Positions 37,970 to 63,526 of a stretch of 64,000 bases of DNA are shown piece after piece; the first letter of the stretch is position 1, and each line of letters starts with the position of its first letter. Below the pieces are notes generated by a model. That model made no database searches. It was not told the origin of the DNA and saw only the letters and a list, made by a program, of their open reading frames with translations. Made by a program: the position numbers and the translations under genes. The stretch is from an uncultured Actinomycetes bacterium (GTDB lineage: Bacteria; Actinomycetota; UBA4738; HRBIN12): the NCBI GenBank assembly GCA_963776425.1, contig CAVZMG010000002.1:729820-793819 (forward strand), written 5' to 3'.

Positions 37970-38632
37970 ATGCCGCGCGAAGACATCGATGGTGGCTGGT
38001 CGATCGAGCCGGACCCGGACGGGCACCTGCACGCGTACGTGTTCATCGATCACACGGATAGCAAGATCTCGAGCGTCCTGTCGGATGTCGCCAAGTCCTA
38101 CAGGAGAGATGCGTTCCCGCGGGTCAGGTGGGCGGGATCGGTGATCGGCGACTACCGCGCGCTCATGCATATCGAAGTGGATGATCCGGACGATCTCGAT
38201 AGCCTCCATGAGTTCCTCGACGAGGATCTGTGGGAGAAAGGCGTCCACTGCCAGACCGCCATGAGCCTCGCGGTCATCAACAAGAAGGGAACGAAGAAGG
38301 ACACCCCGGACGTCCTGGCGCTCGTCGCGATCAAGACCGAGTTCGGCAAGACGATGGACGTCGCGAAGGCGTTGGCGATCGTGGACCAAGAGATGGACTT
38401 CGCTTGGTTCAACGGCGCGTCGATCCTGAACGGCCAGATCGACATCCTGCTGCAGCTGAACGCCGACTCCGTCACCCAGCAGCAGGAGCGGCTCTTCTTG
38501 GACGAGGGCACCGCGCGGATCCTCGGCGACATCCCTGGCATCGCCTCGACGTCGACGGCTATCGCGGAAGGGGCCCGGGGGCCTTGGAGTGGGCCGTTCC
38601 CGCCCGAGTGGGAGCGACCCCGGGGTTCCTAG
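37970..38632 (+). CDS. Hypothetical protein with two tandem Lrp/AsnC RAM-like domains
   Basis: HAYVFI...VIGDYRAL and LALVAIKTEFGK...LNGQIDIL...IPGIASTST each resemble the RAM protein at 32907-33140; GGGAGGGAG RBS. Confidence 0.65.
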   Translation: MPREDIDGGWSIEPDPDGHLHAYVFIDHTDSKISSVLSDVAKSYRRDAFPRVRWAGSVIGDYRALMHIEVDDPDDLDSLHEFLDEDLWEKGVHCQTAMSLAVINKKGTKKDTPDVLALVAIKTEFGKTMDVAKALAIVDQEMDFAWFNGASILNGQIDILLQLNADSVTQQQERLFLDEGTARILGDIPGIASTSTAIAEGARGPWSGPFPPEWERPRGS

Positions 38633-41600
38633 CCGAGTGCGATGAGGCGCTCGCGCGCCTGACGCGCGCTCGCGAGGTTCTCCTTGCGGTCATACGCATC
38701 GATCGCTCGTTGGAACGCATCCTTCGCATCCGATGTGCGTCCGGCCGCGAGGAGCACCTCGGCGAGGTGAACGAGGGCATCGGCCTGGAGGTCGAGGAAC
38801 CCCGTGGGGCGGATCAGCTCGATGGCCTCGCGTGCGAGCGTCTCGGCTTCCTCGGGCTCGCCGCGGCTCGCGAGCACACGCGCCTTCACGCAGCGCCAGC
38901 CCACCTGTTGCTCGAGGTCGTACACGTTCGCGCCCTTCGCGATCTCCTCGGCGAGCGCCTCCGCCTCGTCGAACCGACCGAGCCTGCACGAGAGGTGGGA
39001 CAGATCCGTGGCGGCCGAGACCGCGTTCACGGTGTCGTGCTGGCCCCGGAAGAAGAGGTAGCCGGCCCGTATCCCGCGCTCCGCCTCGTCCAACTTCCCC
39101 TCGGCCAGCGCGACCAACCCCTCTACCCCCGAGACGGCGGCCAGCCAGCGGCGCTGTCCGAGGTCCTCGAAGACGCCGCGTGAGAACGCCACGTGACCCC
39201 GGGCCGCGTCGAAGCGTTCTCGCATCGCGAGGATGATCGCCATCTCGAGCCGGCAGGTGGCTTGGGCCATCCGCTCGCCATCGAGCTCGTCGATCAGCGC
39301 TCGGAGTCGCTCCTCGGCGCTCGAGCACGGGGTGGCGCCGAGCACCAGGGCTTGGCCGACGTAGCTCGCCGCGAGAGGAACGGTGCGCCAATCCTCCACG
39401 TCTCGGGCGAGGAACAGCGCCCGCTCCGAGGTCTGGAGCATCTCGTCCGCCGACCCGGTGAGCCAGTCGCATGTGGCCAGGACGGTCAACGCACCCGCCA
39501 GCCGTCTCCCGTCGCCGAGCAGCTCGAAGGTGGACGTGGCGTCCAACGCCTGCGCGCGGAAGACCTCGAGCCTCGTTCCGCGTGGGTCGATCAGCAGGTT
39601 GAGCTCCGCTCTGCGAAGCTCGGCCCACGTCTCGAGCGGGCGATCCCCGGATGCCCGCGCGATCGGCAGCAGCTCGTCGAGCCTCGCGATGCACTGTTCG
39701 ATATCGCCAGCGAAGTAGAAGCTCTCCGTCAGGTCCGCGAGCAGTTGGCCGCGCTCGAGCGAGTCCTTCGGGATCAAGGCCGCGGCTCTGCGGAGGAGGT
39801 TCGCGCTCGCGCGCATGTCGCCGCGCGCGAGCGCGCGGCGACCGGCGGACGCCAGATGGGAGCCCGCCCGCGAGCCGAGCGCGCGGGCGTGGTCGTCGGG
39901 CGGACCCAGCTCTCCGAGGTATCGTCGGGCCTGCTCGAGGTGGTACCCGATGAACTCCTCGTACTCCTCGAGGCGCCCACCCGCCCTGCCCTCGAGCCAT
40001 CCGGCGAACCGCTCGTGCAACTCGGCTCGCGTCTGCTTCGACAAGGACTCGTACGCGGCGTCGCGGATGAGGATGTGCCGGAACCGATGCAGACCGCCCC
40101 CGAGCTCGCCGGAGCGGAAGGGCTGGAGCAGCTCCTTGCGGGCGAGAGATGCGAGGTGCACTTCGACCTCCGCCTCGATCTGGGCTGGCAGGAGCGCCGC
40201 GAGTGCCGCGGACGAGAATTCGTTTCCGATCACCGCCGCCCGCGCGATCACCGAGTGTTCGTCGCGCGTCAATCGATCCAGTCTCGCGGCGAGAAGCGCG
40301 GAGATCGTCGGGGGGATCGCGACCTTCGTGAGATCGTCGGCGGGCACCCACCGATCTCCCTCCTGCTCCAGCAGCCCGTCGTCGATCAGCATCGAGAGGA
40401 TCTCCTCGACGAACAACGGGTTGCCGCCGGCCACCTCGACGATGTGCTCACGCTCGCGTGGCGCCAGCTCGGCGCTCCCGAGGAGGTTCCGCACCAGGGC
40501 GTCGCCGTCTTCGCTGCGCAGCGGTTCGAGCAGGAGCGACGTGGCGTTCAGCTTGCCCCCGCCCCAAGACCGGTTCGTCTCCAAGAAGTCCGGACGGGCC
40601 AAACACAGGAGCATCATCGGCACATCCCTGGACCACTCAGCGATGTGCTCGATGACCTCGAGGAACGTCGGCTCGCCCCACTGGATGTCGTCGAACACCA
40701 GCACGAGCGGGCGTCGACGGGCGAGCGCCTCGAAGAACGTGCGGATCGCCCAGAAGGTCTCCTCGGGCGCGGCGGTGCCGGTCCCACCGATCCCGATGGC
40801 CTGCGAGATGCGCTGCGCGACCAGGGGCGCGTCCTCGGTCGTGAGGAGGCCGGCGATCTTCGCGCGAGCCTGCTCCACCGTGTCCTCATCCGCGAGACCG
40901 GCGGCCTGCGTTGCCACCTCGGTGATCGGCCAGAACGTGATCCCTTCCCCGTAGGCGAGACAACGCCCGAGGTACGAGGTGGCACGATCGTTCGCCCACG
41001 CGAGGAGTTCGTCGACGAGCCGAGACTTCCCGACCCCGGCAGCACCGAGGATCGTGACCATCTGACATCGGCGGCCGTCGAGCATCCGTTCGAAGGCGTC
41101 TCGCAGCAGCGCCGTCTCGCGCTCGCGATCGACGAACGGCGAGTCCTGCCGCCGCGTGTGCCCCGCGGCCCCGGGGATGACGGAGAGCAGGCGGAAGGCG
41201 CGGACGTTCCCCAATCCCTTCAGCTCGACGAGCTCGACCGGCTCCACCGTGACCGCATCGCGGACCAGGCGGTGCGTGTCGTTCCCGAGCAGGATGGTGC
41301 CCGGCTGGGCGGCGCCCTCCAGGCGGGAGGCGAGGATCACCGGTTCTCCTGAAACGAACGACTGATCACCGATCGGGTCGCCCGCGACGACCTCGCCGGA
41401 GTTGACGCCGATCCGGTTGCGGAGCCGGACGCCCCAATCCCGCTCCAGCTCCGCGTTCAACACGTCGAGCGCATCCTGCATCTCCATGGCCGCGCGCACG
41501 GCTCGAAGGGCGTCGTCTTCGTGCAGGGTCGGAACGCCGAAGACCGCCATCACGGCATCCCCGATGAACTTCTCGACCGTGCCGCCGTGCCGCTCGATGA

Positions 41601-41817
41601 CGGTCCGGGACTCTTCGAAGTAGCGCGTCACGACCTTGCGGAACGACTCGGCGTCGAGCCTCGACGCGAGCGGCGTGGAATCCTCCAGGTCGCAGAAGAC
41701 GATGGTGACGAGCCGCCGCGATTCCTCGGTGGGTGACGCACGGAGCGACGATCCGCACGTGGAACAGAACCTGGCGTGGTCCGGGTTCTGGGTCAAGCAG
41801 GCGGCACAGGTCTGCAT
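38629..41817 (-). CDS. Zn-ribbon + class III adenylate cyclase + STAND/AAA ATPase + TPR-like protein
   Basis: CAAC...CSTC; IVFCDLEDST, VEKFIGDAVMAVFG, IGVNSGE; GAAGVGKS, VFDDIQW, GGNPLF, FRHILIRDAAY. Confidence 0.93.
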   Translation of the reverse strand: MQTCAACLTQNPDHARFCSTCGSSLRASPTEESRRLVTIVFCDLEDSTPLASRLDAESFRKVVTRYFEESRTVIERHGGTVEKFIGDAVMAVFGVPTLHEDDALRAVRAAMEMQDALDVLNAELERDWGVRLRNRIGVNSGEVVAGDPIGDQSFVSGEPVILASRLEGAAQPGTILLGNDTHRLVRDAVTVEPVELVELKGLGNVRAFRLLSVIPGAAGHTRRQDSPFVDRERETALLRDAFERMLDGRRCQMVTILGAAGVGKSRLVDELLAWANDRATSYLGRCLAYGEGITFWPITEVATQAAGLADEDTVEQARAKIAGLLTTEDAPLVAQRISQAIGIGGTGTAAPEETFWAIRTFFEALARRRPLVLVFDDIQWGEPTFLEVIEHIAEWSRDVPMMLLCLARPDFLETNRSWGGGKLNATSLLLEPLRSEDGDALVRNLLGSAELAPREREHIVEVAGGNPLFVEEILSMLIDDGLLEQEGDRWVPADDLTKVAIPPTISALLAARLDRLTRDEHSVIARAAVIGNEFSSAALAALLPAQIEAEVEVHLASLARKELLQPFRSGELGGGLHRFRHILIRDAAYESLSKQTRAELHERFAGWLEGRAGGRLEEYEEFIGYHLEQARRYLGELGPPDDHARALGSRAGSHLASAGRRALARGDMRASANLLRRAAALIPKDSLERGQLLADLTESFYFAGDIEQCIARLDELLPIARASGDRPLETWAELRRAELNLLIDPRGTRLEVFRAQALDATSTFELLGDGRRLAGALTVLATCDWLTGSADEMLQTSERALFLARDVEDWRTVPLAASYVGQALVLGATPCSSAEERLRALIDELDGERMAQATCRLEMAIILAMRERFDAARGHVAFSRGVFEDLGQRRWLAAVSGVEGLVALAEGKLDEAERGIRAGYLFFRGQHDTVNAVSAATDLSHLSCRLGRFDEAEALAEEIAKGANVYDLEQQVGWRCVKARVLASRGEPEEAETLAREAIELIRPTGFLDLQADALVHLAEVLLAAGRTSDAKDAFQRAIDAYDRKENLASARQARERLIALG

Positions 41818-41839
41818 ATCCCGAAGCCTAGACGGGTGA

Positions 41840-42385
41840 TCAGCCGAGCGCGGCGTCGATCCCCCGGTTGAGCGCGGCCTGTGAGAGCTGGCCGTCCCAG
41901 GTGGAGACGACCTGTCCGCCCGCGTCATAGAAGACGGTGACAGGCTGTCCGATCATCCCGAGCGAATCTCGGATCGCGCCCGACGGATCGAACACGCTCG
42001 GGTACGTCACGCGTTGCTCGGCCAGGAACGAACGTGCCCCGCCGAGCGAGTCCAGGATGTCGACGCCGAGGAACTGCAACCGGTCCCCATAGGTGGAGTG
42101 CGCCGACCGGAGGAGCGGTGACTCCGCCTTGCACGGTCCGCACCACGATGCCCAGACGTTGACGACGACCGGCGTACCGCGGAGCTGGGTCAGCAGCCGC
42201 TGATAGGTGTCCACATCGAACAGCGGCAGGGCCGCGACCGACGTCGGCAGCAGCGCGGCCGTCGTCGCGTTGCTCGCGGGCGCGCCATCGAGATCCGCCG
42301 GGGTCGCGTCGGAGGAGGCTCCATGCGCGCAGCTCATCAGGACCAACGAGATCGCGAAGAGGAAGGAACGGCGGGTCGCCATCAT
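41840..42385 (-). CDS. TlpA-family thiol-disulfide oxidoreductase lipoprotein
   Basis: LMSC lipobox; VNVWASWCGPCKAE, GQP. Confidence 0.9.
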   Translation of the reverse strand: MMATRRSFLFAISLVLMSCAHGASSDATPADLDGAPASNATTAALLPTSVAALPLFDVDTYQRLLTQLRGTPVVVNVWASWCGPCKAESPLLRSAHSTYGDRLQFLGVDILDSLGGARSFLAEQRVTYPSVFDPSGAIRDSLGMIGQPVTVFYDAGGQVVSTWDGQLSQAALNRGIDAALG

Positions 42386-53013: not shown

Positions 53014-53394
53014 ATGGCGACCATCCTGATCGTCGAGGACCACCCCACGATGCGCGACGCGATGCGCTTGGTGCTCGAAGAGGACGGGCACGATGTGGAG
53101 GAAGCCTCTGATGGTGAGACCGGTCTCGACGCCGTACGGGCGCACCCTCCCGATCTCGTCCTGCTGGATCTGAACATCCCCGTCCTGTCGGGCGCGGACG
53201 TGCTCGAGGCGCTTCGCGCGGATCCGGCGACCGATGCGGTGCTCGTCGTGGTCGTGACCGCGACCGGCGAGGAGGGCCGTGCACGCTCCCTCGCTCAGGG
53301 GGCGGATGACTACATCACGAAGCCGTTCAGCCCGCTCGCCCTGCTCCGGACAGTGGAGCGGGTGCTTCGAGGCTCCGCGACGTCGGGATCGTGA
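53014..53394 (+). CDS. Single-domain response regulator (receiver)
   Basis: ILIVEDH, LVLLD, VTA, YITKPF. Confidence 0.92.
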   Translation: MATILIVEDHPTMRDAMRLVLEEDGHDVEEASDGETGLDAVRAHPPDLVLLDLNIPVLSGADVLEALRADPATDAVLVVVVTATGEEGRARSLAQGADDYITKPFSPLALLRTVERVLRGSATSGS

Positions 53395-55153
53395 CGGCGA
53401 ACGCGGCTCCGAGGCCCGGCTCGGACTCGACGGAGATCCATCCCCCCATCGCCTGCGTGAGCTGACGAGCGATGTAGAGCCCGAGCCCGGCACCCTCCGA
53501 ATGCGCGGCCGCGGAGCCCGTCTGGTGGAACCGATCGAAGATGATGTCCAATTCAGCCGGCGGGATGCCGGGCCCTCGGTCGCGGATCGCGAACGTGACC
53601 GTCCCGGTCGAATAGGACCCGGCCGCGAGATGCACGGGTTTGTCCGGAGGGGAGAACTTCAACGCGTTCATCAGCAGGTTGGTGAGGATCTGCATCAGCC
53701 GTTGCGGATCCACGACCAGCTCCTCTGGCATGCCCGGCTCTTCGATCACCGTGACGCGGCTCGCGAGTTCACCGAGCCCCTGCCGGACGCCCACCAACAG
53801 GTCGGCGGTCCTGATCGACTCGGGCACGAACGAGAGCTTGCCGGCCTCGATACGGGAGATCAGCAGCAGGTCCTCGACGAGCCTGATCAACCGATCGGTC
53901 TGCAGGTGGATGATCCCGAGGTACTCCTCGACCTCGCTGGGCGAGAGCTCGCCCTGTCGTCGACGCAGGGCGTCCACGAATCCGCGCACCGCGGTGAGCG
54001 GCGTCCGGAGCTCATGGCTCGTGATCGCGACGAAGTCCGACTTGAGCTCGTCCAGCTCGCGGAGTCGGGCGAGGGTCTCCTCCTGCCGAGCGCGCAGCCG
54101 GGTCGCCTGGACCACGAGCGAGACCTGATCCGCGAGCCGACCCAGAAGCAGCATCCGGTCCCGGTCGAGGGCGCCGGGCTCACTCGCGCGTTCGTGCAGG
54201 ATCCCGATCACACGATCGCCCGCGCGGAGCGGCACCTCGGCCTCGGACCGGTCCGCGCGCAGGTTCGCACGAGAGAAGTCCGGGGCCGTCCCGAACGGCT
54301 CGCTCCCGGCGACGAACCGCGTGCCGCGATCGTAGCCCGGATCGCCGTAGACGCCGGCCGAGACCAACTGCTCCGACCCGTCTTCGCCGGGCTCGAGCAG
54401 CAACACCCCCAGCGACTCGCATCCGAGCTCCCGACCCACCGCTTCAGCGATCGCCTGCATGCCCTCAGCGGGATCCTCGGCCGCCACGCCTGCCAGGATC
54501 GCCGTGTGGAACGCGGAAAGGTCGCGGCGTGCCTCAGCCTCACGCCGCGCGGCCTCCTCCGCCTGTTGCGCCGCCTCTTCGGCCTCGGCCGTCCGTTCGT
54601 TCGCCCGATCTCGTTCCCGGCCGAGGGAGCTCGCGAACATGCCCGCGGCGAGCGCGATGACCGCAGCCATCCCGACCCGGAAGGAGACGGCCGAGCCTAC
54701 GAACCGATACGTGGGGAACTGTTCGGCCAGGTACAGCTCGCGTGCGATCTCGGAGACGAGCAGGATCGGAAGAGGAACGAGTGCGCCCACCAGCCCGTAC
54801 CGCATGGCCCCCTCGATCGGGAGGAGGTAGGCGATGACCCAGGCGGGATCCGAGGGTTTGTGGGCGGCGACCCACACCCACACCACGATCACCACGATGT
54901 CCAGTGCGAACGCGATCGCTCCGACCCATCGGAGTTCGGACGTGCTGGTCGCCCGGCGGCAGATCCGCGTGAACGACAGGTTGCCGATCGCCAAGCCGAC
55001 CGTGAGGACGGCACCGAGCGGTGCGGCGAAGCGTTGGGCGTTCGGGTCGATCGCCTCGACCACGGTCTGCACCGTGCCGTACGCGACGAGGAGCCAGCGG
55101 AGCCGCACCAGCGCGAGCTCCAGGTGCCTCGTCTGTTCCAGGTCCCGCTTCAT
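53327..55153 (-). CDS. Membrane sensor histidine kinase with GAF-like domain
   Basis: Several N-terminal TMs; SHELRTPLT, NLLMNALKF, DRGPGI, GLGL. Confidence 0.93.
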   Translation of the reverse strand: MKRDLEQTRHLELALVRLRWLLVAYGTVQTVVEAIDPNAQRFAAPLGAVLTVGLAIGNLSFTRICRRATSTSELRWVGAIAFALDIVVIVVWVWVAAHKPSDPAWVIAYLLPIEGAMRYGLVGALVPLPILLVSEIARELYLAEQFPTYRFVGSAVSFRVGMAAVIALAAGMFASSLGRERDRANERTAEAEEAAQQAEEAARREAEARRDLSAFHTAILAGVAAEDPAEGMQAIAEAVGRELGCESLGVLLLEPGEDGSEQLVSAGVYGDPGYDRGTRFVAGSEPFGTAPDFSRANLRADRSEAEVPLRAGDRVIGILHERASEPGALDRDRMLLLGRLADQVSLVVQATRLRARQEETLARLRELDELKSDFVAITSHELRTPLTAVRGFVDALRRRQGELSPSEVEEYLGIIHLQTDRLIRLVEDLLLISRIEAGKLSFVPESIRTADLLVGVRQGLGELASRVTVIEEPGMPEELVVDPQRLMQILTNLLMNALKFSPPDKPVHLAAGSYSTGTVTFAIRDRGPGIPPAELDIIFDRFHQTGSAAAHSEGAGLGLYIARQLTQAMGGWISVESEPGLGAAFAVTIPTSRSLEAPAPLSGAGRAG

Positions 55154-55227
55154 GGACGCCTTGCCCCCGGCCCTCGGTACAATCGGCCAGCCGGGCTTTC
55201 CGGCGCACGGCCGCACCCTACGTAGAC

Positions 55228-56601: not shown

Positions 56602-57156
56602 ATGGCGACGAGGATCAGGCTCCGGCGGTTGGGCGCGAAGAAGCGACCCTTCTACCGGGTCGTGGTGGCCGATCAGCGGAGTCCGCGCGACGGCCGCTTC
56701 ATCGAGAACATCGGTAAGTACCACCCGCTCGAGGACCCATCGTTGATCGAGATCGACGAGGAGCGCGCCCTCCATTGGTTGCGGGTCGGCGCGCAGCCGA
56801 GCGACCAGGTCCGCAACCTGATGGTCAAGGTGGGGATCTGGGATCGGTTCGTCGAGGAGCGCCCCAGCGCATCGACGCTCGTGAAGACGAAGTCCGAGAA
56901 ACCGCCGAAGGAGAAGGTCTCCAAGAAAGCCGCTGCCAGGGCCGCCGCCGAGTCAGAGGCGCTACCCGAGCCGGTATCACCACCCGAGCCGGTATCACCA
57001 CCCGCTGCCGAGGATGCCGTAGCTGTGGTGACGGAGGAAGCTCCCGTGGATGCGACCGCGCCTGCCGAAGTCGAGGCCGACGCACCCGTCGCGGAGGAGG
57101 CCACCGAGATCCCCAGCGAGGCGACCTCCACCGAGGAGGAGAGCGTCGAGTCGTGA
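56602..57156 (+). CDS. rpsP: 30S ribosomal protein S16 with acidic C-terminal tail
   Basis: [32 protein letters not shown]. Confidence 0.96.
56964..57004 (+). repeat. 18-bp tandem repeat (x2.3) in the S16 tail, encoding PEPVSP
   Basis: acccgagccggtatcacc repeated exactly. Confidence 0.85.
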
Positions 57157-57383
57157 GGGAGCTCGTGGAGTTCTTAGCTCGGGAGCTGGTCGACGATCCC
57201 GACGCCGTGTCCGTGACCGAGTCGAACGACCAGCGAGGGATCTTGCTCACGGTCCATGTCGCGCCCGATGACATGGGCAAGGTGATCGGCCGGGGCGGGC
57301 GGACCGCGAAGGCGATCCGTTCCGTCGTTCGGGCCGCCGCCACCCGCCAAGGCGTCTCCGCCCACGTCGATATCGCCGACTGA
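57153..57383 (+). CDS. khpA: KH-domain RNA-binding protein
   Basis: [25 protein letters not shown]. Confidence 0.93.
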
Positions 57384-57902
57384 GTGGCCGAGCCGACCGT
57401 CGTCGTCGGCAAGATCACGAAGGCCCACGGTCTCCGCGGTGAGGTCGTCGTGTTGGTCCTGTCGGACAACCCGGATCGGTTCATCGCGGGTGCGTCGGTA
57501 TTCCTGGAGGATGGGCGTGAGCTCGGCGTCGGCGCCGTCCGTGCGAATGGCGGGCGGCTGTTGGTCTCGTTCCACGGGGTCGAAGACCGGACGCAGGCGG
57601 AGCGTCTGCGGGGCGCCACGCTCGTGGTGCCTACGTCCATGCTGCCGGCCTTGCCACCGGGAGAGTATTGGCCTCACCGATTGATCGGTTGCCGGGTCGT
57701 CTCGGAATCGGGACGGTCGTTGGGCGCGATCGCCGACGTCATCTCGACCCCCGCGAACGACCTCTGGGCCGCGGTCGACGAACAGGGTGTCGAGATCCTC
57801 ATCCCCGCGCTGAAGGAGTTCGTCCTGGACGTGAACGTCGACGAACGTCTCGTGCGGGTCATCGATCACGTGGGTCTGACCGTCCCGGAAGACGAGGGTT
57901 GA
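57384..57902 (+). CDS. rimM: Ribosome maturation factor RimM
   Basis: VGKITKAHGLRGEV, DRTQAERLRG, EYW, ILIP. Confidence 0.94.
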   Translation: MAEPTVVVGKITKAHGLRGEVVVLVLSDNPDRFIAGASVFLEDGRELGVGAVRANGGRLLVSFHGVEDRTQAERLRGATLVVPTSMLPALPPGEYWPHRLIGCRVVSESGRSLGAIADVISTPANDLWAAVDEQGVEILIPALKEFVLDVNVDERLVRVIDHVGLTVPEDEG

Positions 57903-57923
57903 AGGAGAGGCTCGCTCTTCGGG

Positions 57924-58631
57924 CTACAGGCCGGCGATCTTCGCCAATCCGTCGACCTTCTTCAGGACGTAGCGCCGGCCGTCCTTCTCCACGAGCCCGC
58001 GTCGCTGGAACTCGCTGAGCACGCGGGTCACGTTCTCCCGGCTGCCGCCGCAGAGGCTGGCGAGGTCGACGTGCGTGACGGTCGGGACGACCACGCCATC
58101 GTCCGGAAGATCGTCCAGGCTCGGGGTGACCATCTGGAGGAGGCGCTTCGCCACCCGGCCCTTGAGATCGAGGAAGAGCAGGTCGTCGACGAGCGATTGG
58201 TCCGCGTGAACCTGCCTGGCCAGCGCCCGAAGCACGTTCCGGGCGGCCGCCGGCTCCTGCGTGAGGAACGCCACGAAATCCTCGGAATGGACGACCGCGA
58301 CGGTGACATCCTCCAGGGCGAGCGCGCTCGCGGTCCGGTCGATGTCGCCCAACACGCCCAGCTCGCCGAGGAACTGCGGGGTGTCGAGCGTGGCATGGAG
58401 GACCCGGCTGCCGTTCGCCGCCACCGAGCTGATCTCGACCCGGCCATCCACGAGGAAGAAGACATCCGGCGCCGGGTCGCCCTGGTGGCAGAGGTAGGTG
58501 TTGCGGCGGTAGTGGCGGAGGAGGCAGCCTTCGGCGAATCCGGCCACGGCTGACCGCGACACGCCTGCGAGGTATGGAGAATCGCCGAGCGCCCGCTCGA
58601 GGGCCGTCGTCGCGGCGGAAGCCTTCGCCAT
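57924..58631 (-). CDS. Crp/Fnr-family transcriptional regulator
   Basis: cNMP domain QGDP...FLGELGVLGDIDRTASA; HTH THVDLASLCGGSRENVTRVLSEF; TAGGCT -10 7 nt before ATG. Confidence 0.93.
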   Translation of the reverse strand: MAKASAATTALERALGDSPYLAGVSRSAVAGFAEGCLLRHYRRNTYLCHQGDPAPDVFFLVDGRVEISSVAANGSRVLHATLDTPQFLGELGVLGDIDRTASALALEDVTVAVVHSEDFVAFLTQEPAAARNVLRALARQVHADQSLVDDLLFLDLKGRVAKRLLQMVTPSLDDLPDDGVVVPTVTHVDLASLCGGSRENVTRVLSEFQRRGLVEKDGRRYVLKKVDGLAKIAGL

Positions 58632-58670
58632 CCCGCGTAGCCTAGTCGGGTCGGGGAAGGGGCACCAACG

Positions 58671-58701
58671 GAACGAGCCCGGTCGAGGACCGGGCTCGTT
58701 C
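58671..58701 (-). terminator. Hairpin downstream of peptide 1
   Basis: Perfect 14-bp stem GAACGAGCCCGGTC-GAG-GACCGGGCTCGTTC. Confidence 0.75.
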
Positions 58702-58716
58702 GTCGGCACGAAGGCG

Positions 58717-58851
58717 CTACTTGGCGACCTTCTTCCTGCTGACCTTCTTGCGTGAGACCTTCTTGAGGCTCTTGCGCTCGGCAGCGTGACTCGTTGCGGT
58801 CGTCGAGGCCTCAGCTTTGGGCTTCTTCGGTGAGATCTTCTTCTCGGCCAT
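58717..58851 (-). CDS. 44-aa Lys-rich repeat peptide 1: MAEKKISPKKPKAEASTTATSHAAERKSLKKVSRKKVSRKKVAK
   Basis: Translated by hand (below the ORF-track cutoff); RBS GGGAGGTGG; paralog of peptide 2; own hairpin. Confidence 0.85.
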   Translation of the reverse strand: MAEKKISPKKPKAEASTTATSHAAERKSLKKVSRKKVSRKKVAK

Positions 58852-58913
58852 CTGGATTCCACCTCCCCCCTCGTTCCATGCGTTGCATCGTCACCCACGC
58901 TCACGTTCCCGGC

Positions 58914-58952
58914 GGTGCTGCTCGTCGCGGATCGGCTGTGTCGTCCATCACA
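58914..58952. promoter_or_regulatory. CRP-type box(es) upstream of peptide 1
   Basis: TGTGT-cgtcca-TCACA at 58937-58952; degenerate GGTGC-tgctcg-TCGCG at 58914-58929. Confidence 0.6.
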
Positions 58953-58966
58953 TCACCGAGATGACA

Positions 58967-58992
58967 GATGGACCCGGCGAACCGGGCCCATC
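58967..58992 (-). terminator. Hairpin downstream of peptide 2
   Basis: Minus strand GATGGGCCCGG-TTCG-CCGGGTCCATC (UUCG loop, one G-U pair). Confidence 0.7.
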
Positions 58993-59018
58993 CAGGGGTG
59001 TGGCATATGCGGAGTGTC

Positions 59019-59156
59019 CTAGCGGGACAGCTTCTTGCGGCTGATCTTCTTGTGGCTGACCTTCTTCATGGTCTGCTTCTTGGTCACGCGAGCGGCGGGC
59101 TCCTCAGCGTTCCGGGCACCCTCCGGGGCCTTCGGCGAGATCTTCTTGTCTGCCAT
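59019..59156 (-). CDS. 45-aa Lys-rich repeat peptide 2: MADKKISPKAPEGARNAEEPAARVTKKQTMKKVSHKKISRKKLSR
   Basis: RBS GGAGGAGGTG; C-terminal part of ORF 59019..59312; paralog of peptide 1. Confidence 0.85.
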   Translation of the reverse strand: MADKKISPKAPEGARNAEEPAARVTKKQTMKKVSHKKISRKKLSR

Positions 59157-59249
59157 CTGGTTCACCTCCTCCGTCGCTCTCCGACCCTCTCGGGTCTCAC
59201 AGGGCCGTCTTCCGATGCCCGCATCATGCCGCAGGTCGTCGTGGCGGGT

Positions 59250-59335
59250 GGTGTCGCGCGTCACCAAGCGTTGGGTGCCCTCCATCACAAGAGGTTTTGT
59301 GACGTCCGACACGTCAGGTTGTGACGTGCGTCACA
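59250..59335. promoter_or_regulatory. Array of four CRP-type boxes upstream of peptide 2
   Basis: GGTGT-cgcgcg-TCACC (59250), GGTGC-cctcca-TCACA (59274), TGTGA-cgtccg-ACACG (59298), perfect TGTGA-cgtgcg-TCACA (59320); spacing 24/24/22 bp. Confidence 0.75.
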
Positions 59336-59543
59336 CATCGAGCTCCGGCAGATCGACGGGGTCGGGCCGGGGCGAGCAGGCGCCGCACGAGAGGGCGTCC
59401 TCCACCACGATCGCCCGCGATGTCTCCGTCGTCTTGAAGAGCTCCAGGATGTACGGCTGGGTCTGCGCATGGTCCTCGCAGACGCCCCGGCCGCAGAACC
59501 GACAGATGCCGACGGCGGTCCGGCGGCAATGCCAACAATCCAT
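59331..59543 (-). CDS. Small Zn-finger-like protein (DUF2180-like)
   Basis: MDCWHCRRTAVGICRFCGRGVCEDH...CGAC; GAGGGG RBS. Confidence 0.8.
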   Translation of the reverse strand: MDCWHCRRTAVGICRFCGRGVCEDHAQTQPYILELFKTTETSRAIVVEDALSCGACSPRPDPVDLPELDV

Positions 59544-59571
59544 CCTCAGGTCCCCTCTCGCGATGGCGGCG

Positions 59572-61851
59572 CTAATGCTGCCACGTTCTGCCCGATGCCG
59601 ACTTGAACGTGCCGCGCCGGAACGCATCGGCGATGACGGCGTCGAACCCCTCGCGATCCAAGCGGAAGGCTCGCATCGGCGTCCGCGCGACGATCGTCGC
59701 GGTCCGGGGCGAAGACCGCAGGAGGGCGATCTCTCCGAAGTAGGCCCCAGGGCCGAGCGTCGCGATGTGCTCCCCATCGCGGATCACATCGGCCTGGCCC
59801 GAACGGATCGCGTAGAAGGCGTCGGCGTCCTCTCCCTGCGTGATCAGTTCCCGGCCCGGGGCCGCGGTGATCCACCCGCCGTGCTCGAGCAGCACCGAGA
59901 GCGGTGCCGAGCCGAGCCCGGCGAACACCGGCAGTTCCCGGAGCTCCTGGAGTGTCTGCATGGTTGGGGCGAACTCGGGTGCATGGATCGAGTCGGCGAG
60001 GAGTCGATCGAACGTGCCCTTGTCCACCTCGAAGAGCTCGGTCTCATCGATCGCGCGTGCGGTCGCGGATCGCGGCGCCGCCTCGAGCAGACCGAGCTCC
60101 CCGAACGAGTCGCCGCGCGATAGGACCCGCAGGATCTGCGTGTCGCCGGTGTCCGGATCCTCTTCCTCGATCCCCACCCGACCGCGGCGAACGACGTAGA
60201 AACCCGTCGGCCGGTCGCCCTGGCGGAACACGGGCTGCAGGGCTCGGACGCTGCGCAGCGTGACACGGCCGGCCAGGTCGTTCAGGACGTCCACCGGGAG
60301 GTCGTCGAACGCGGGCAGCCCGTCGATCAGCTCGGCCGCCTCCACGCGCCACTTGGATTCGGTGCGGAACTGGATCCGTCGCCAGATCGCCTGGATCCGC
60401 CGGCCGACGACCCGGCCGAGCGCGATCGCGCCTCGCAGGGCAGGACCGAGGAGGAACAGGCTGAGCAAGATGAGAAGGAGTCGGGAGATCACGCCCCCGC
60501 TCCACAACGCGGAGATCAATCCGCCGAAGATCTCTTGCCAGAAGAAATATGCGGCTTTGAGCGACACGACCGTGAAGATGATCCCGACGATGGCGTAGCC
60601 GCCGAGCCCAAGTTCCTGCGGGGTGAGCCGCTCCCTCGTGCGCAGCTTGTGCCAGAGGTCGCGCTGGATGAACGCGAGGGACCGCGGCCGGAGATCCGGC
60701 ACCTGGATCAGATCCGACAAGATCCAATAGCCGTCCAGCTCCAACAGTGGGATGAGGTTGAGGAAGATCACCAGATAGTTGAGGACCGCGAACTTGTACA
60801 GCACCCCAGAGATCGCCGAATGGGGAAGGAGCAGGAGGTACAGGGAGGCGAGTCCGGCGAGGACGAGCTCGGCGAACGGGCCCGCGAACGACTGGACGAT
60901 CCGCTTGCCTCGATCCAGCATCAGCCCGTCCGAAGCCTCGACGAAGAACGCCGGTGAGCCGAAGTAGATCATGAAGCCCGCGCTCTTCACCCGCCGGTCG
61001 TAGTGGGTGAGCACGACCGCGTGACCGAGCTCGTGCGCGAACGTGAGCACGAACGAGAGCCCCAGGAGGATCAGCGATTCCGCCGGCGCCGAGGACCGGC
61101 CGAGGCTGAACCGTCCGCTCTGCTCCACGACGACGAACGCGACGAACCCACCGACCGCGATGACCCCGGCGACACTCGCCCCCGCTGGCGTGAAGACCCA
61201 GCGGAGGAGATGCTGGTACCACCACTTGACCAAACGATCCGCGCCGCTCCAGTCGATGGAGAGCGTTTTCGCGAAGGTACGAAGCTTCCGACGAACGGGT
61301 GACGCCGGGTCCAGATGCTCCCTGAGTGATTCCTCAACGTCTGGCGGATGGGGATCCAGGAAGCCTCCGGTCTGCAGGGCCATCACCAAGCCGGTGGCGG
61401 CGCCGGCGTCCAGATCGCCCTCTTCGTCCATCCGGTCGACGATGATGTCCGCCACGGTGCGAGTGCCGTCCATCAGCTCCAGGAGATCCGCCTCCCACGG
61501 CTCGAGCCGGAAGAACAACAGGGCGCGCGGGTTCGCGGCCATCGCATAGTCGTTGCCCCACCGCAGCGGGAATCGCTTGACCTCCACGTCATCGGCGAGC
61601 TTCGGACGGAAGCGCGCACCGTCGGTCCGTTCATCGAGGAGGTCCCAGAGCACCCCTTCCTCGGCAGGGGGCACGCGGAGGGCGGCGCCGACCGCCGCCC
61701 ACACGTCGATATCGCCGCGGGGGGCTGCCAATCGCGCGCTAAGGACCTGATCGATCCGCACGCGTCGTCGCCCGCGCGATCTGATCGCGCCGATCCCGAC
61801 CGCAGCCGCGGCCATGAGCGCCACGAGCCCCCACTGTCCGTCGATCTGCAT
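59572..61851 (-). CDS. RRE/PqqD-like domain + M50 intramembrane Zn metalloprotease + two cNMP-binding domains
   Basis: LLELMDGTRTVADI...LQTGGFL (wHTH); HELGH, FAGP, NLIPLLELDGYWIL (M50); FGELGLLEAAPRSAT and FGEIALLRSSPRTAT (cNMP cassettes). Confidence 0.88.
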   Translation of the reverse strand: MQIDGQWGLVALMAAAAVGIGAIRSRGRRRVRIDQVLSARLAAPRGDIDVWAAVGAALRVPPAEEGVLWDLLDERTDGARFRPKLADDVEVKRFPLRWGNDYAMAANPRALLFFRLEPWEADLLELMDGTRTVADIIVDRMDEEGDLDAGAATGLVMALQTGGFLDPHPPDVEESLREHLDPASPVRRKLRTFAKTLSIDWSGADRLVKWWYQHLLRWVFTPAGASVAGVIAVGGFVAFVVVEQSGRFSLGRSSAPAESLILLGLSFVLTFAHELGHAVVLTHYDRRVKSAGFMIYFGSPAFFVEASDGLMLDRGKRIVQSFAGPFAELVLAGLASLYLLLLPHSAISGVLYKFAVLNYLVIFLNLIPLLELDGYWILSDLIQVPDLRPRSLAFIQRDLWHKLRTRERLTPQELGLGGYAIVGIIFTVVSLKAAYFFWQEIFGGLISALWSGGVISRLLLILLSLFLLGPALRGAIALGRVVGRRIQAIWRRIQFRTESKWRVEAAELIDGLPAFDDLPVDVLNDLAGRVTLRSVRALQPVFRQGDRPTGFYVVRRGRVGIEEEDPDTGDTQILRVLSRGDSFGELGLLEAAPRSATARAIDETELFEVDKGTFDRLLADSIHAPEFAPTMQTLQELRELPVFAGLGSAPLSVLLEHGGWITAAPGRELITQGEDADAFYAIRSGQADVIRDGEHIATLGPGAYFGEIALLRSSPRTATIVARTPMRAFRLDREGFDAVIADAFRRGTFKSASGRTWQH

Positions 61852-61895
61852 CCCTCCCGACGCCGGACGCTAGCGCAAGCTGGCGGGCACCGTCG

Positions 61896-61956
61896 CGTGA
61901 CGGCCGTCACCCCGGGTGCGTGACGCATCCGTCGGTCGCGCGTGTCGCTCGTCATC
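61896..61956. promoter_or_regulatory. CRP-type boxes in the divergent promoter region
   Basis: CGTGA-cggccg-TCACC (61896), half-site CGTGACG (61919), CGTGT-cgctcg-TCATC (61941). Confidence 0.65.
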
Positions 61957-62014
61957 GGTGAGACCGGACGGTCGTTCTACGGTTCTGCTATCGGGCGAAC
62001 GGGAGGTGGCAGTG

Positions 62015-62221
62015 ATGCTGACAGGAGCGATGGCGAGGGAACAGATCCAGGACCGGGTTCGCGCAGGTGAGATGGCGCGGAGCGCCCGGATGGCACGCGG
62101 TCGCCGCGTCCGCGACCCGAGGAACGCCGTCCGATCGGTGGCGAGCGGGATGTTAGCCACCGTGTTCTCGATGCAGCGGACGGCGGCGGCAGCCCCGCGA
62201 GCGAGGACCACAACGGTCTGA
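62015..62221 (+). CDS. Small basic hypothetical protein (MLTGAMAREQIQDRVRAGE...)
   Basis: GGGAGGTGG RBS; TACGGT -10 at 61978. Confidence 0.6.
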   Translation: MLTGAMAREQIQDRVRAGEMARSARMARGRRVRDPRNAVRSVASGMLATVFSMQRTAAAAPRARTTTV

Positions 62222-62246
62222 GCGCCGCCGCTGCTAGCCTCGCGGC

Positions 62247-62942
62247 GTGCGGGTCGACATCTTCACGATCTTCCCCGGCATCTTCGAGGGTCCACTGCGG
62301 GAGAGCCTCCTGGGGCGGGCGATCGACGCGGGGATCCTCGATGTTCGCCTCCACGACATCCGCGACCACGCCGGCAACCGCCATCGGCAGGTGGATGACG
62401 AACCGTTCGGCGGCGGACCCGGGATGGTGATGAAGCCTGAACCCATCTTCGCTGCGGTCGGATCGCTCGGACGGACGAGGGGCCGCACGATCCTCCTGTC
62501 TCCCGCGGGTCGCCGGCTCGATCAGGCTCTCGTCCGCGAACTGGCATCAGAGCCGTGGATCGTGCTCGTCTGCGGCCGGTACGAGGGTGTCGACGAGCGG
62601 GTGGTCGAGGGGTTGCCGGCGGAAGAGGTATCCATCGGCGACTACGTGCTCTCGGGTGGAGAGGTTCCCGCCCTCGTGATGCTCGAGGCGATCTCGCGCC
62701 TCGTTCCCGGCGTGATCGGGACCGACGAGTCGCACGAGCAGGATTCGTTCGGCGCCGAGGGCATCTTGGATCATCCGCACTACACGCGCCCGCGGCGCTT
62801 CGAGGGTATGGACGTCCCCGAGGTGCTCCTGTCGGGCGATCACGCCGAGATCGAGCGGTGGCGACGTGCCGAAGCGCTCGAGAAGACCCGTCGCGTGCGG
62901 CCCGACCTGCTGGGAGGCCCGGACGCGCCATCGGGACCGTGA
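62247..62942 (+). CDS. trmD: tRNA (guanine-N1)-methyltransferase
   Basis: [42 protein letters not shown]. Confidence 0.97.
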
Positions 62943-62974
62943 GAGGGCGACTGGTACAATCGCCAACCGTTGTC

Positions 62975-63526
62975 ATGAACAAGACCGACCTCGTCGAGCA
63001 GCCGTTCCTCCGCTCGGATATCCCGGACTTCCGCCCAGGCGACACCGTGAAGGTGCACGTCCGGGTGGTGGAAGGGACCCGCGAGCGCGTTCAGGTGTTC
63101 CAGGGCGTCGTGATCCGCCGGCAGAACGGTGGGCTCCGCGAAACGTTCACCGTGCGGAAGATCTCGTTCGGGGTTGGCGTGGAGCGCACGTTCCCGCTTC
63201 ACTCGCCATCCATCGCCAAGCTCGAAGTGGTATCGCGAGGCCGGGTCCGACGCGCGAAGCTCTACTACCTGCGTGATCTGCGCGGGAAGAAGGCTCGGAT
63301 CAAGGAGCGCCGGATCGACGACGCGAAGCTGGCGGCGATGGAAGCAGCCGCACTCGCGCTCCAGGAGACCGACGTGGACGAGCCCGAAGAGACCGACGTC
63401 CAGGAGACGACCGACGCCGAGATCGCCGGTGAGATGACGGCCGACATCGAAGGCCCCGCCGAAGCTGTCGACGGCGCGGATGACGGAACCACCGCCGAGC
63501 CGGCGGAGGAGAAGGCCGAGGGCTGA
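62975..63526 (+). CDS. rplS: 50S ribosomal protein L19 with acidic tail
   Basis: [36 protein letters not shown]. Confidence 0.97.

Follow-up and report, generated by a model that had tools for sequence, protein, structure and literature searches.

We analysed a candidate nucleotide-controlled membrane protease, P0001, and the small genes that accompany it in a window of 64,000 nucleotides (nt) from an uncultured Actinomycetes bacterium (GenBank assembly GCA_963776425.1, contig CAVZMG010000002.1, positions 729,820 to 793,819 of the forward strand); "the window" below always means that whole stretch. The P0001 gene is a single open reading frame (ORF) on the minus strand, with an ATG start and 759 codons for amino acids (aa), that fills positions 59572..61851 exactly. 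The plus-strand reading of the same interval is interrupted by many stops, and the GC content at third codon positions (0.86) resembles that of neighbouring genes in a window of 65-71% G+C. The gene heads a cassette whose order is protease, a 70-aa zinc finger, one or two peptides of about 45 aa and a Crp-family regulator (Table 1). From its N-terminus the protein runs through a transmembrane (TM) helix, a predicted domain of the RRE/PqqD fold (RRE, recognition element of RiPPs, peptides that are made on the ribosome and modified after translation) and a six-TM M50 core to two domains for binding cyclic nucleoside monophosphates (cNMP). A preliminary description, made from the letters of the stretch alone, had called this an unusual domain fusion; the architecture is real, but it is abundant in metagenomes and is thus undescribed rather than rare. 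The motifs quoted there (HELGH, NLIPLLELDG and both phosphate-binding cassettes) were all found in P0001, and every part of its interpretation that could be computed was supported. It did not mention the conserved partner genes, which supply candidate substrates.

Conservation within P0001 was judged on an alignment of 30 homologues of 28-85% identity. Hydropathy places one helix at residues 5-23 and six more at 224-242, 257-279, 329-347, 354-378, 420-438 and 454-472; Lys/Arg-rich loops lie at 282-321 and 376-414, and an Arg cluster follows the first helix. Taken with the loop charges, this predicts a cytoplasmic location for the RRE domain, the cNMP domains and the two metal motifs. A search of one genome per species gave 591 stretches that encode relatives, and the best 80 of them, nearly all from uncultured Actinomycetota, are the related loci counted out of 80 below. 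The N-terminal anchor that the preliminary description assigned to the protein is present in P0001 but is not general: the first helix is covered (by a match starting at residue 19 or earlier) in 25/80 related loci by hand count, and it is missing from the more distant homologues in the alignment. A purine-rich GGGAGGG abuts the annotated ATG with zero spacer (window 61849-61860), so the true start may shift by a few codons; the homologues favour inclusion of the first helix. Public annotations of relatives read either 'cyclic nucleotide-binding domain-containing protein' or 'CRP-like cAMP-binding protein/Zn-dependent protease'.

Table 1. Features of the P0001 cassette, with positions in the window or, in the last row, in the related locus named.
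Feature	Position	Strand	Evidence
P0001, RRE-M50-cNMPx2 protein, 759 aa	59572..61851	minus	ORF, translation, Pfam and NCBIfam matches, 30-sequence alignment
N-terminal TM helix, residues 5-23, followed by RSRGRRRVR	61783..61839	minus	Kyte-Doolittle window score 1.67; closer relatives only
Predicted RRE/PqqD-like winged helix, about residues 82-167	61351..61608	minus	AlphaFold2 model, Foldseek, VIA, PaaA profile match
Six-TM M50/site-2 protease core, residues 224-472	60436..61182	minus	Hydropathy, PF02163, NF041824
HELGH zinc-binding/catalytic motif, residues 273-277	61021..61035	minus	H273, E274, H277 invariant (30/30)
NLIPLLELDG, residues 365-374, third zinc ligand D373	60730..60759	minus	P368, L372, D373, G374 invariant; N365 at least 90%
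cNMP domain A, residues 533-620, cassette 583-597	59992..60255	minus	PF00027; G584 invariant; PKG/PKA PDB matches
cNMP domain B, about residues 641-740, cassette 705-719	59632..59931	minus	Pfam, NCBIfam and PDB matches
Cys/His zinc-finger protein, 70 aa, DUF2180-like	59331..59543	minus	Translation, Pfam, homologues, model; starts 28 nt past protease stop
Peptide gene 1, 45 aa, with a conserved head, an AARVT junction and a repeat tail rich in Lys	59019..59156	minus	Translation, family alignment, codon GC
Peptide gene 2, 44 aa, paralogue of peptide 1	58717..58851	minus	ORF calls, family alignment
GC-rich hairpin after peptide gene 2	58662..58709	minus	Fold of 58650-58722: -39.9 kcal/mol, z -5.7, 0/200 shuffles as stable
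Crp/Fnr-family regulator, 235 aa from MAKAS...	57924..58631	minus	cNMP_binding E 1e-19, HTH_Crp_2 E 5e-15
Perfect Crp-type box TGTGACGCACGTCACA	59320..59335		Overlaps zinc-finger stop codon, upstream of peptide gene 1
GTGA-N6-TCAC core box	61897..61910		About 52 nt upstream of protease start codon; pattern scan
M1 aminopeptidase (Peptidase_M1 + ERAP1_C), divergent clade	L089:2792-5317, L090:1-2475, L091:1142-3712, L092:1-2561, L093:182-2710		

The zinc ligands of the protease core are intact, as the preliminary description had it: H273, E274, H277 and D373 do not vary among the 30 homologues, and HELGH and NLIPLLELDG lie within the hydrophobic segments 257-279 and 354-378, respectively. Pfam Peptidase_M50 (PF02163) matches P0001 with 32.1 bits against a cut-off of 27.2, or 38.1 bits in the genome search when neighbouring stretches join, and a single-sequence search of the PDB with residues 198-499 gave no match at E 1 or better. 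The best NCBIfam model was NF041824 (daptide_HExxH, E 1.2e-48), which aligns residues 113-464 with profile positions 28-370 of 379; scores of 128-175 bits (E 5e-38 to 2e-51) were obtained with it for six distant members of the family. The score of P0001 (166.2 bits) is under the 300-bit equivalog cut-off and the window holds no daptide enzymes (oxidoreductase, aminotransferase or methyltransferase) near the gene, so an identity as a daptide protease was considered and ruled out. The NCBIfam YydH/LiaK model also matches, with E 1.8e-12 and 47.5 bits against a cut-off of 225 bits. From sequence, the best explanation of P0001 is that it would be a cytoplasm-facing intramembrane site-2 (M50) zinc metalloprotease, homologous to the RRE-dependent leader peptidase of the daptide systems. 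That enzyme, MpaP, is an RRE-site-2 protease fusion (bioRxiv 10.1101/2023.03.08.531785). The RRE-protease half of P0001 is therefore of a kind already in print, and the cNMP tandem is the addition.

The domain ahead of the core was modelled with AlphaFold2 from residues 62-215 of P0001 aligned with 57 related loci (58 sequences). Mean confidence (predicted local distance difference test, pLDDT) was 80.3, and about 90 across model residues 21-70; in model numbering, strands at 29-33, 41-46 and 51-55 are followed by helices at 57-63, 72-83 and 88-100. When the model was compared with the PDB by Foldseek, the top 12 rows were all RRE-bearing proteins (TbiB1, PqqD, lasso B1, LynD, TruD, TigE and the PbtF RRE). 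VIA, an independent structure search over 48,161 chains, aligned it with the lasso B1 protein 6jx3_B at Z 10.6 (root-mean-square deviation 2.6 Å, 82 of 85 residues), followed by TbiB1 (5v1u_A, Z 10.4), TigE (9.8), PqqD (5sxy, 9.3) and the PbtF RRE (8.7), with lower scores for ThcOx, MibB, CteB, LynD, MccB and NisB; the two best-scoring lasso RRE structures are ones solved with leader peptides. Model and searches together support an RRE/PqqD fold. They bear out the segment of strands and then helices to which the preliminary description had pointed, and the resemblance extends to PqqD itself, the fold on which that description had staked its reading. At the level of sequence, RRE-type matches of P0001 are confined to PaaA-like_N (E 0.099) and ApyI (E 0.078), and the best PDB profile match of the region is the PaaA RRE (E 0.14). 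Distant family members match PqqD (PF05402) at E 0.004-0.005, below the cut-off.

At the other end of the protein, Pfam cNMP_binding (PF00027) matches twice, over two stretches, with E 7.4e-42 and 141.7 bits. The C-terminal 260 aa align over both domains with PDB entries for PKG (5ezr, E 3.7e-38) and PKA RI (about 1e-29), which makes the earlier comparison with the tandem of a PKA regulatory subunit apt. The phosphate-binding cassettes, FGELGLLEAAPRSAT (583-597) and FGEIALLRSSPRTAT (705-719), are intact as first described: among the 30 homologues G584, F705, G706 and E707 are invariant, and conservation is 90% or more at F583, E585, R594, A596, T597, P715, R716, A718 and T719. Presumably the Gly-Glu and Arg-(S/T/A)-Ala-(T/S) elements play the roles that they have in PKA and CAP. 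It would be in keeping with these features if the protease were switched allosterically by cAMP or cGMP. Signalling by such nucleotides is plausible in this organism, since its 3.18-Mb genome holds 59 matches to the class III cyclase domain (PF00211), all above cut-off, a density that is very high for a genome of that size. One of these matches lies in the window, at 41188-41718, inside an ORF of about 1107 aa on the minus strand (38629-41952).

The gene directly after the protease encodes the zinc-finger protein. Its ORF was found in 77/81 loci and the other four loci end at the protease gene, so that it is present in 77/77 loci with downstream DNA, in most of them after a gap of 3-47 nt. DUF2180 (PF09947) matches the protein at 22.0 bits, just under its cut-off of 22.2, and C5HCH matches at E 6e-5. 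Some homologues carry a precomputed PF09947 assignment and have DUF2180 in their source names, and in Atlas clusters PF09947 is assigned to 12-28% of members. A search returned 478 homologues, with identities of 72-90% among the 120 listed. C3, H5, C6, C14, C17, C22, H25, C53 and C56 are invariant in this family, as are a VEDA strand and R59, P62, P66 and E67 of an RPDPxxLPEL tail. The structural model (pLDDT 87.9) shows zinc knuckles and a long hairpin, with a tail at pLDDT of about 70. Its fold matches are weak, the best being FYVE domains at Z 4.0, and we therefore claim no fold family beyond a cross-brace-like two-zinc finger.

The phyletic coupling of the two genes is close. Among 401 genomes sampled evenly across the phylum, with tallies that include two genomes flagged unpublished (G088 and G343), the RRE plus M50 part matches in 45 at E<=1e-20 and strongly (E<=1e-60) in 39. 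The zinc-finger gene, which occurs once in the window's own genome, is on the same contig as the protease in 38/39 of the latter (36/37 without G088 and G343), the sole exception being a genome that is 62% complete; among the other 362 genomes, three have a zinc-finger match, of weaker score. Related genomes are not independent, and this coupling is accordingly descriptive.

Beyond the zinc finger come the short peptide genes. Across the related loci 78 such ORFs were found in 73/81 loci, with a median length of 45.5 aa and a median net charge of +13. They share a head, MA(D/E)KKI(T/S)PKA, which passes through a variable Lys/Ala/Ser stretch to a conserved AA(T/A)RV(T/S); the tail beyond it differs even among close relatives, is often a tandem repeat of 3-5 residues, and consists of 49% Lys+Arg and 1% Asp+Glu. 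GC by codon position is 0.49/0.51/0.90, and variation in the first nine codons falls at the third positions of Ala2 and Pro8. By these measures the short ORFs are coding, and gene callers have annotated 276 such peptides as hypothetical proteins. Identity is 0.56 in the leader against 0.32 in the core over 1081 pairs, and 0.90 against 0.51 over 75 close pairs; on this comparison the peptides look like leader-plus-core precursors. A profile search of the window's own genome returned only the two copies in the window. Within the tail of peptide 1 lies a 15-nt DNA tandem repeat of 2.4 copies (59031-59066), and a (TAR)n tail is one unit longer in locus L080 than in the near-identical L081; taken together, copy-number difference and DNA repeat indicate slippage as a source of tail diversity. 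The hairpin that follows peptide gene 2 (Table 1) has no equal after peptide gene 1, where the fold was no more stable than shuffles (z -1.1). A search of Rfam over 57000-63000 found no family with an E-value of 0.1 or less, and a scan with consensus promoters and terminators gave nothing beyond shuffles.

The last member of the cassette also matches NCBIfam CRP, at E 4.9e-23 and below cut-off, and a same-strand Crp-like gene lies within 2.6 kb downstream of the protease in 69/80 loci. Crp-type boxes recur as well. The pattern GTGA-N6-TCAC was found between -30 and +400 nt of the zinc-finger stop in 67/77 loci, against 0.21 occurrences per kb over all loci; most of the boxes read TGTGAC-N4-GTCACA and stand singly or in arrays about 22-24 bp apart. 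By eye-count, a box also precedes the protease gene in about 27/77 loci. A near-consensus box in the window, TGTGA-N6-ACACA, with one palindrome mismatch (58937-58952, about 90 nt upstream of peptide gene 2), was missed by the pattern and read by eye.

The P0001 gene lies antiparallel between rimM and trmD, within the array smc-ftsY-(GAF histidine kinase)-ffh-rpsP-rimM...trmD-lepB. The ffh-rpsP-rimM-trmD-lepB surroundings are common to only 31/80 related loci, which indicates that the cassette travels as a unit. Its distribution is wide. A word-indexed protein search gave 1390 matches among 8000 scored candidates; the best 119 besides the query are 672-793 aa long with identities of 59-86%, both Pfam domains being present in 111. 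An exhaustive search of cluster representatives yielded 712 with E<=1e-30. In the 401-genome sample the protease is concentrated in the window's own order (families f1 to f4: 15/22, 3/3, 2/2 and 2/2) and in family f15 (13/21), and it was not found in most of the other families searched. Matches of 3.1-3.3 kb were considered as long forms of the protein and rejected, tblastn resolving them into a protease of about 720 aa joined to the adjacent Crp-like gene. Sequencing runs offered four soil DNA runs from one study, with small shares only, and no RNA run was listed. The literature searched, with subscription journals mostly outside it, described no site-2 protease with cNMP domains and no such zinc-finger family or peptides. 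The context of the RRE-protease-cNMP fusion, with zinc finger, peptides and Crp regulator, is new, and the attached peptide family is possibly new as well.

More divergent loci keep part of this arrangement. Twelve further loci were fetched, nine with a protease 32-39% identical to P0001 and three at 43-48%. The zinc finger is directly downstream in 9/9 of the former, and the latter three have peptides of the window type with new repeat units. Read in three frames, L089 and L091 of the 32-39% clade show a Lys/Arg ORF after the zinc finger with another N-terminus and a tri-residue repeat tail. Five of the seven loci with called ORFs in this clade (L089-L093) contain an M1 aminopeptidase of about 840 aa, which follows the small ORFs and precedes the Crp-like gene; the presence of the latter was confirmed in L089 and L090. 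Enzymes of the M1 family are known to trim the leaders of RiPPs (PMC10885120). An Arg/Ala-rich ORF of about 91-102 aa that ends in Cys and has no Pfam match separates the M1 peptidase from the Crp-like gene (L089:5402-5686, L090:3304-3579, L091:772-1080), similar in L089 and L091 and more distant in L090.

The conserved cassette suggests a second-messenger-controlled peptide-processing system, and we propose how its parts might act together. A Crp-type regulator with cAMP would act at TGTGA-N6-TCACA boxes before the peptide genes and, in some loci, before the protease gene. The RRE domain would capture the conserved N-terminal part of the peptides, and the M50 site would cut near the AA(T/A)RV(T/S) junction, releasing the polycationic repeat tail. 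Cyclic nucleotide on the tandem cNMP domains would license or gate the cut, and the zinc-finger protein would be an obligatory partner, perhaps an adaptor, an inhibitor or a chaperone for the polycation. The architecture, the folds, the conserved motifs, cassette and boxes and the coding signature of the peptide ORFs come from the data, whereas which partners bind, where the cut falls, whether it depends on nucleotide and what becomes of the products are what we infer in this scheme. It is the simplest one in which every part has a use, and it would amount to a feed-forward gate by cAMP (or cGMP). As a whole, that of a cNMP-licensed, RRE-guided intramembrane peptidase processing co-encoded cationic peptides under Crp-type control, it stands in our estimate slightly short of an even chance. 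The weaker proposition, that one of the cassette's small products is what the protease acts on, under nucleotide control, we consider likely.

Several observations weigh against this scheme. In the Foldseek comparison the E-values of the RRE model are 1.7e-3 and weaker, none reaching 1e-3, and P0001 has no match to Pfam PqqD (PF05402) at E 1 or better. Winged-helix domains that are neither RRE nor RiPP proteins (PKMT2, Rv2067c) score Z 9.2-9.7 in VIA, so the fold alone is no proof of peptide binding. As extreme polycations that lack any hydrophobic stretch, the peptides resemble neither the aliphatic precursors of daptides nor known site-2 protease substrates, and neutral replication slippage could partly explain their repeat tails. 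The cassette is without a modifying enzyme and thus, strictly speaking, is no RiPP pathway. Only proximity assigns the boxes to the Crp-like protein of the cassette, in a genome where the cNMP part of P0001 has at least 17 matches. Finally, the zinc finger, at 72-90% identity, shows a tighter coupling to the protease than the peptides do, and it could therefore be the true ligand of the RRE or the substrate.

This last point leads to the main rival, in which the zinc-finger protein itself is the RRE ligand or substrate and its cNMP-controlled proteolysis, or sequestration by it, is the output, for example to control the Crp-like regulator beside it; on this view that regulator would target the peptides, or they would be unrelated. 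In favour of this reading, the protein is encoded immediately downstream of the protease (77/77 loci with downstream DNA, 9/9 divergent loci) and co-occurs with it in 38/39 genomes, it is far more conserved than the protease (about 55-60% identity), and the nearly invariant RPDPxxLPEL tail, modelled at pLDDT of about 70, fits a linear recognition motif. The protein is nevertheless compact and folded, whereas the RREs with solved complexes (5v1u, 6jx3, 8t19) bind short unstructured leaders. Conservation so extreme would be less expected of a substrate that is consumed than of a cofactor or a stoichiometric partner, and peptides with a leader and a hypervariable tail, present in both clades, are left unexplained. 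We consider this reading unlikely, though a good deal less so than the two that follow. One of these takes the short Lys/Arg ORFs for nucleic-acid-binding polycations, similar to histone H1 or SPKK proteins, or for translated leader ORFs that regulate the Crp gene after them, with the protease acting elsewhere. The N-terminal (S/T)-P-(K/R)-(K/A) resembles the SPKK DNA-binding motif, the composition of the tails fits (49% Lys+Arg, 1% Asp+Glu), and the ORFs lie directly upstream of the Crp gene with hairpins after them. This reading is compatible with proteolytic processing, however, and multiple copies that combine a constant head and a hypervariable tail are what precursor peptides beside an RRE enzyme look like; the strong hairpin lies 3' of its ORF and does not overlap it, unlike classical attenuators. 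This reading as a whole seems to us improbable.

It is more improbable still that P0001 is a housekeeping site-2 protease, clearing signal peptides or small membrane proteins under cNMP tuning, with the RRE-like domain an inherited structural or regulatory winged helix and the downstream genes a separate Crp regulon. The gene does sit amid ffh, rpsP, rimM, trmD and lepB, genes of secretion and the ribosome, in 31/80 loci, the window included; winged-helix matches of its N-terminal domain include non-RRE proteins; and site-2 proteases of the RseP type are reported to clear signal peptides and small membrane proteins. Against this, the genome has four M50 genes, three of them besides P0001 and one of these canonical (403 aa, 170 bits). 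The composition of the cassette is kept outside the housekeeping context in 49/80 loci, P0001 comes closest to the profile of a RiPP leader peptidase and not to RseP, and zinc finger and protease occur together in 38/39 genomes.

Known control of site-2 proteases is through PDZ or CBS domains or through an earlier cut at site 1, and those fused to an RRE are, to our knowledge, known only as constitutive leader peptidases. The CBS domain of the Bacillus subtilis protease SpoIVFB senses ATP. SpoIVFB parallels the role proposed for P0001 in that it joins a site-2 protease to a cytoplasmic nucleotide-sensing regulatory domain and takes an N-terminal pro-sequence off a substrate other than a classical TM protein (PMC11486902); it differs in having CBS in place of tandem cNMP domains, in lacking an RRE, and in its partners BofA and SpoIVFA, which are unrelated to the zinc finger. 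MpaP and P0001 both carry an RRE N-terminal to the site-2 protease, with homology over P0001 residues 113-464, and both are co-encoded with short ORFs, sometimes several, that have a conserved N-terminal motif. P0001 differs in its two C-terminal cNMP domains and in its zinc-finger and Crp partners; daptide precursors are aliphatic with a C-terminal Thr, whereas the peptides here are polycationic repeats. EpeP/YydH, TglG and TmoG are likewise membrane M50 enzymes, cutting soluble ribosomal (RiPP) peptides, and the passages on them in the review PMC10885120 mention neither an RRE nor a cNMP domain.

The cNMP tandem has its own relatives. PKA regulatory subunits and PKG share the CNB-A/CNB-B arrangement with FGE...R(S/T)AT cassettes, but in P0001 the tandem is fused to a membrane protease and does not control a kinase, and its sequence does not disclose which nucleotide it prefers. 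TIGR03896 (cyc_nuc_ocin, 'bacteriocin-type transport-associated protein') matches P0001 at E 2.5e-7 and distant members at up to 6e-20, via the cNMP domains only and far under its 161-bit cut-off; likened by model name alone, it is a possible precedent linking cNMP sensing with ribosomal peptide systems.

Tandem cNMP sensors on a site-2 protease would couple cAMP/cGMP signalling directly to proteolysis, in a protease that is kept in many uncultured soil Actinomycetota with genomes crowded by cyclases. We know of no other leader peptidase that is gated directly by a cyclic nucleotide. Whether the cassette stands for a new class of second-messenger-licensed ribosomal peptides, with a coherent cAMP feed-forward gate, a dedicated Crp regulator, an RRE-guided protease that would fire only with its own cNMP domains occupied, and an obligatory zinc-finger adaptor or chaperone, is a larger claim, which we regard as possible but tend to doubt. 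The co-encoded peptides offer a testable substrate set with a defined leader, a defined junction and natural variation of the tail, and they may be an unexplored cationic family, antimicrobial or nucleic-acid-binding. With four parts the cassette is small enough for heterologous expression, which opens second-messenger gating of an intramembrane protease to experiment.

The family also varies in architecture. In relatives of 1030-1170 aa (P0160, P0164, P0172, P0179 and about 60 similar proteins) an insert of about 350 aa without a Pfam match parts the RRE-M50 head from the cNMP tandem. Other variants carry FHA (P0191), AhpC/TSA (P0231) or three N-terminal cNMP domains (P0269). Elsewhere in the window, a GAF-domain histidine kinase (HisKA + HATPase_c; 53327-55216, minus strand) lies antiparallel between ftsY and ffh and interrupts the otherwise conserved smc-ftsY-ffh-rpsP array.

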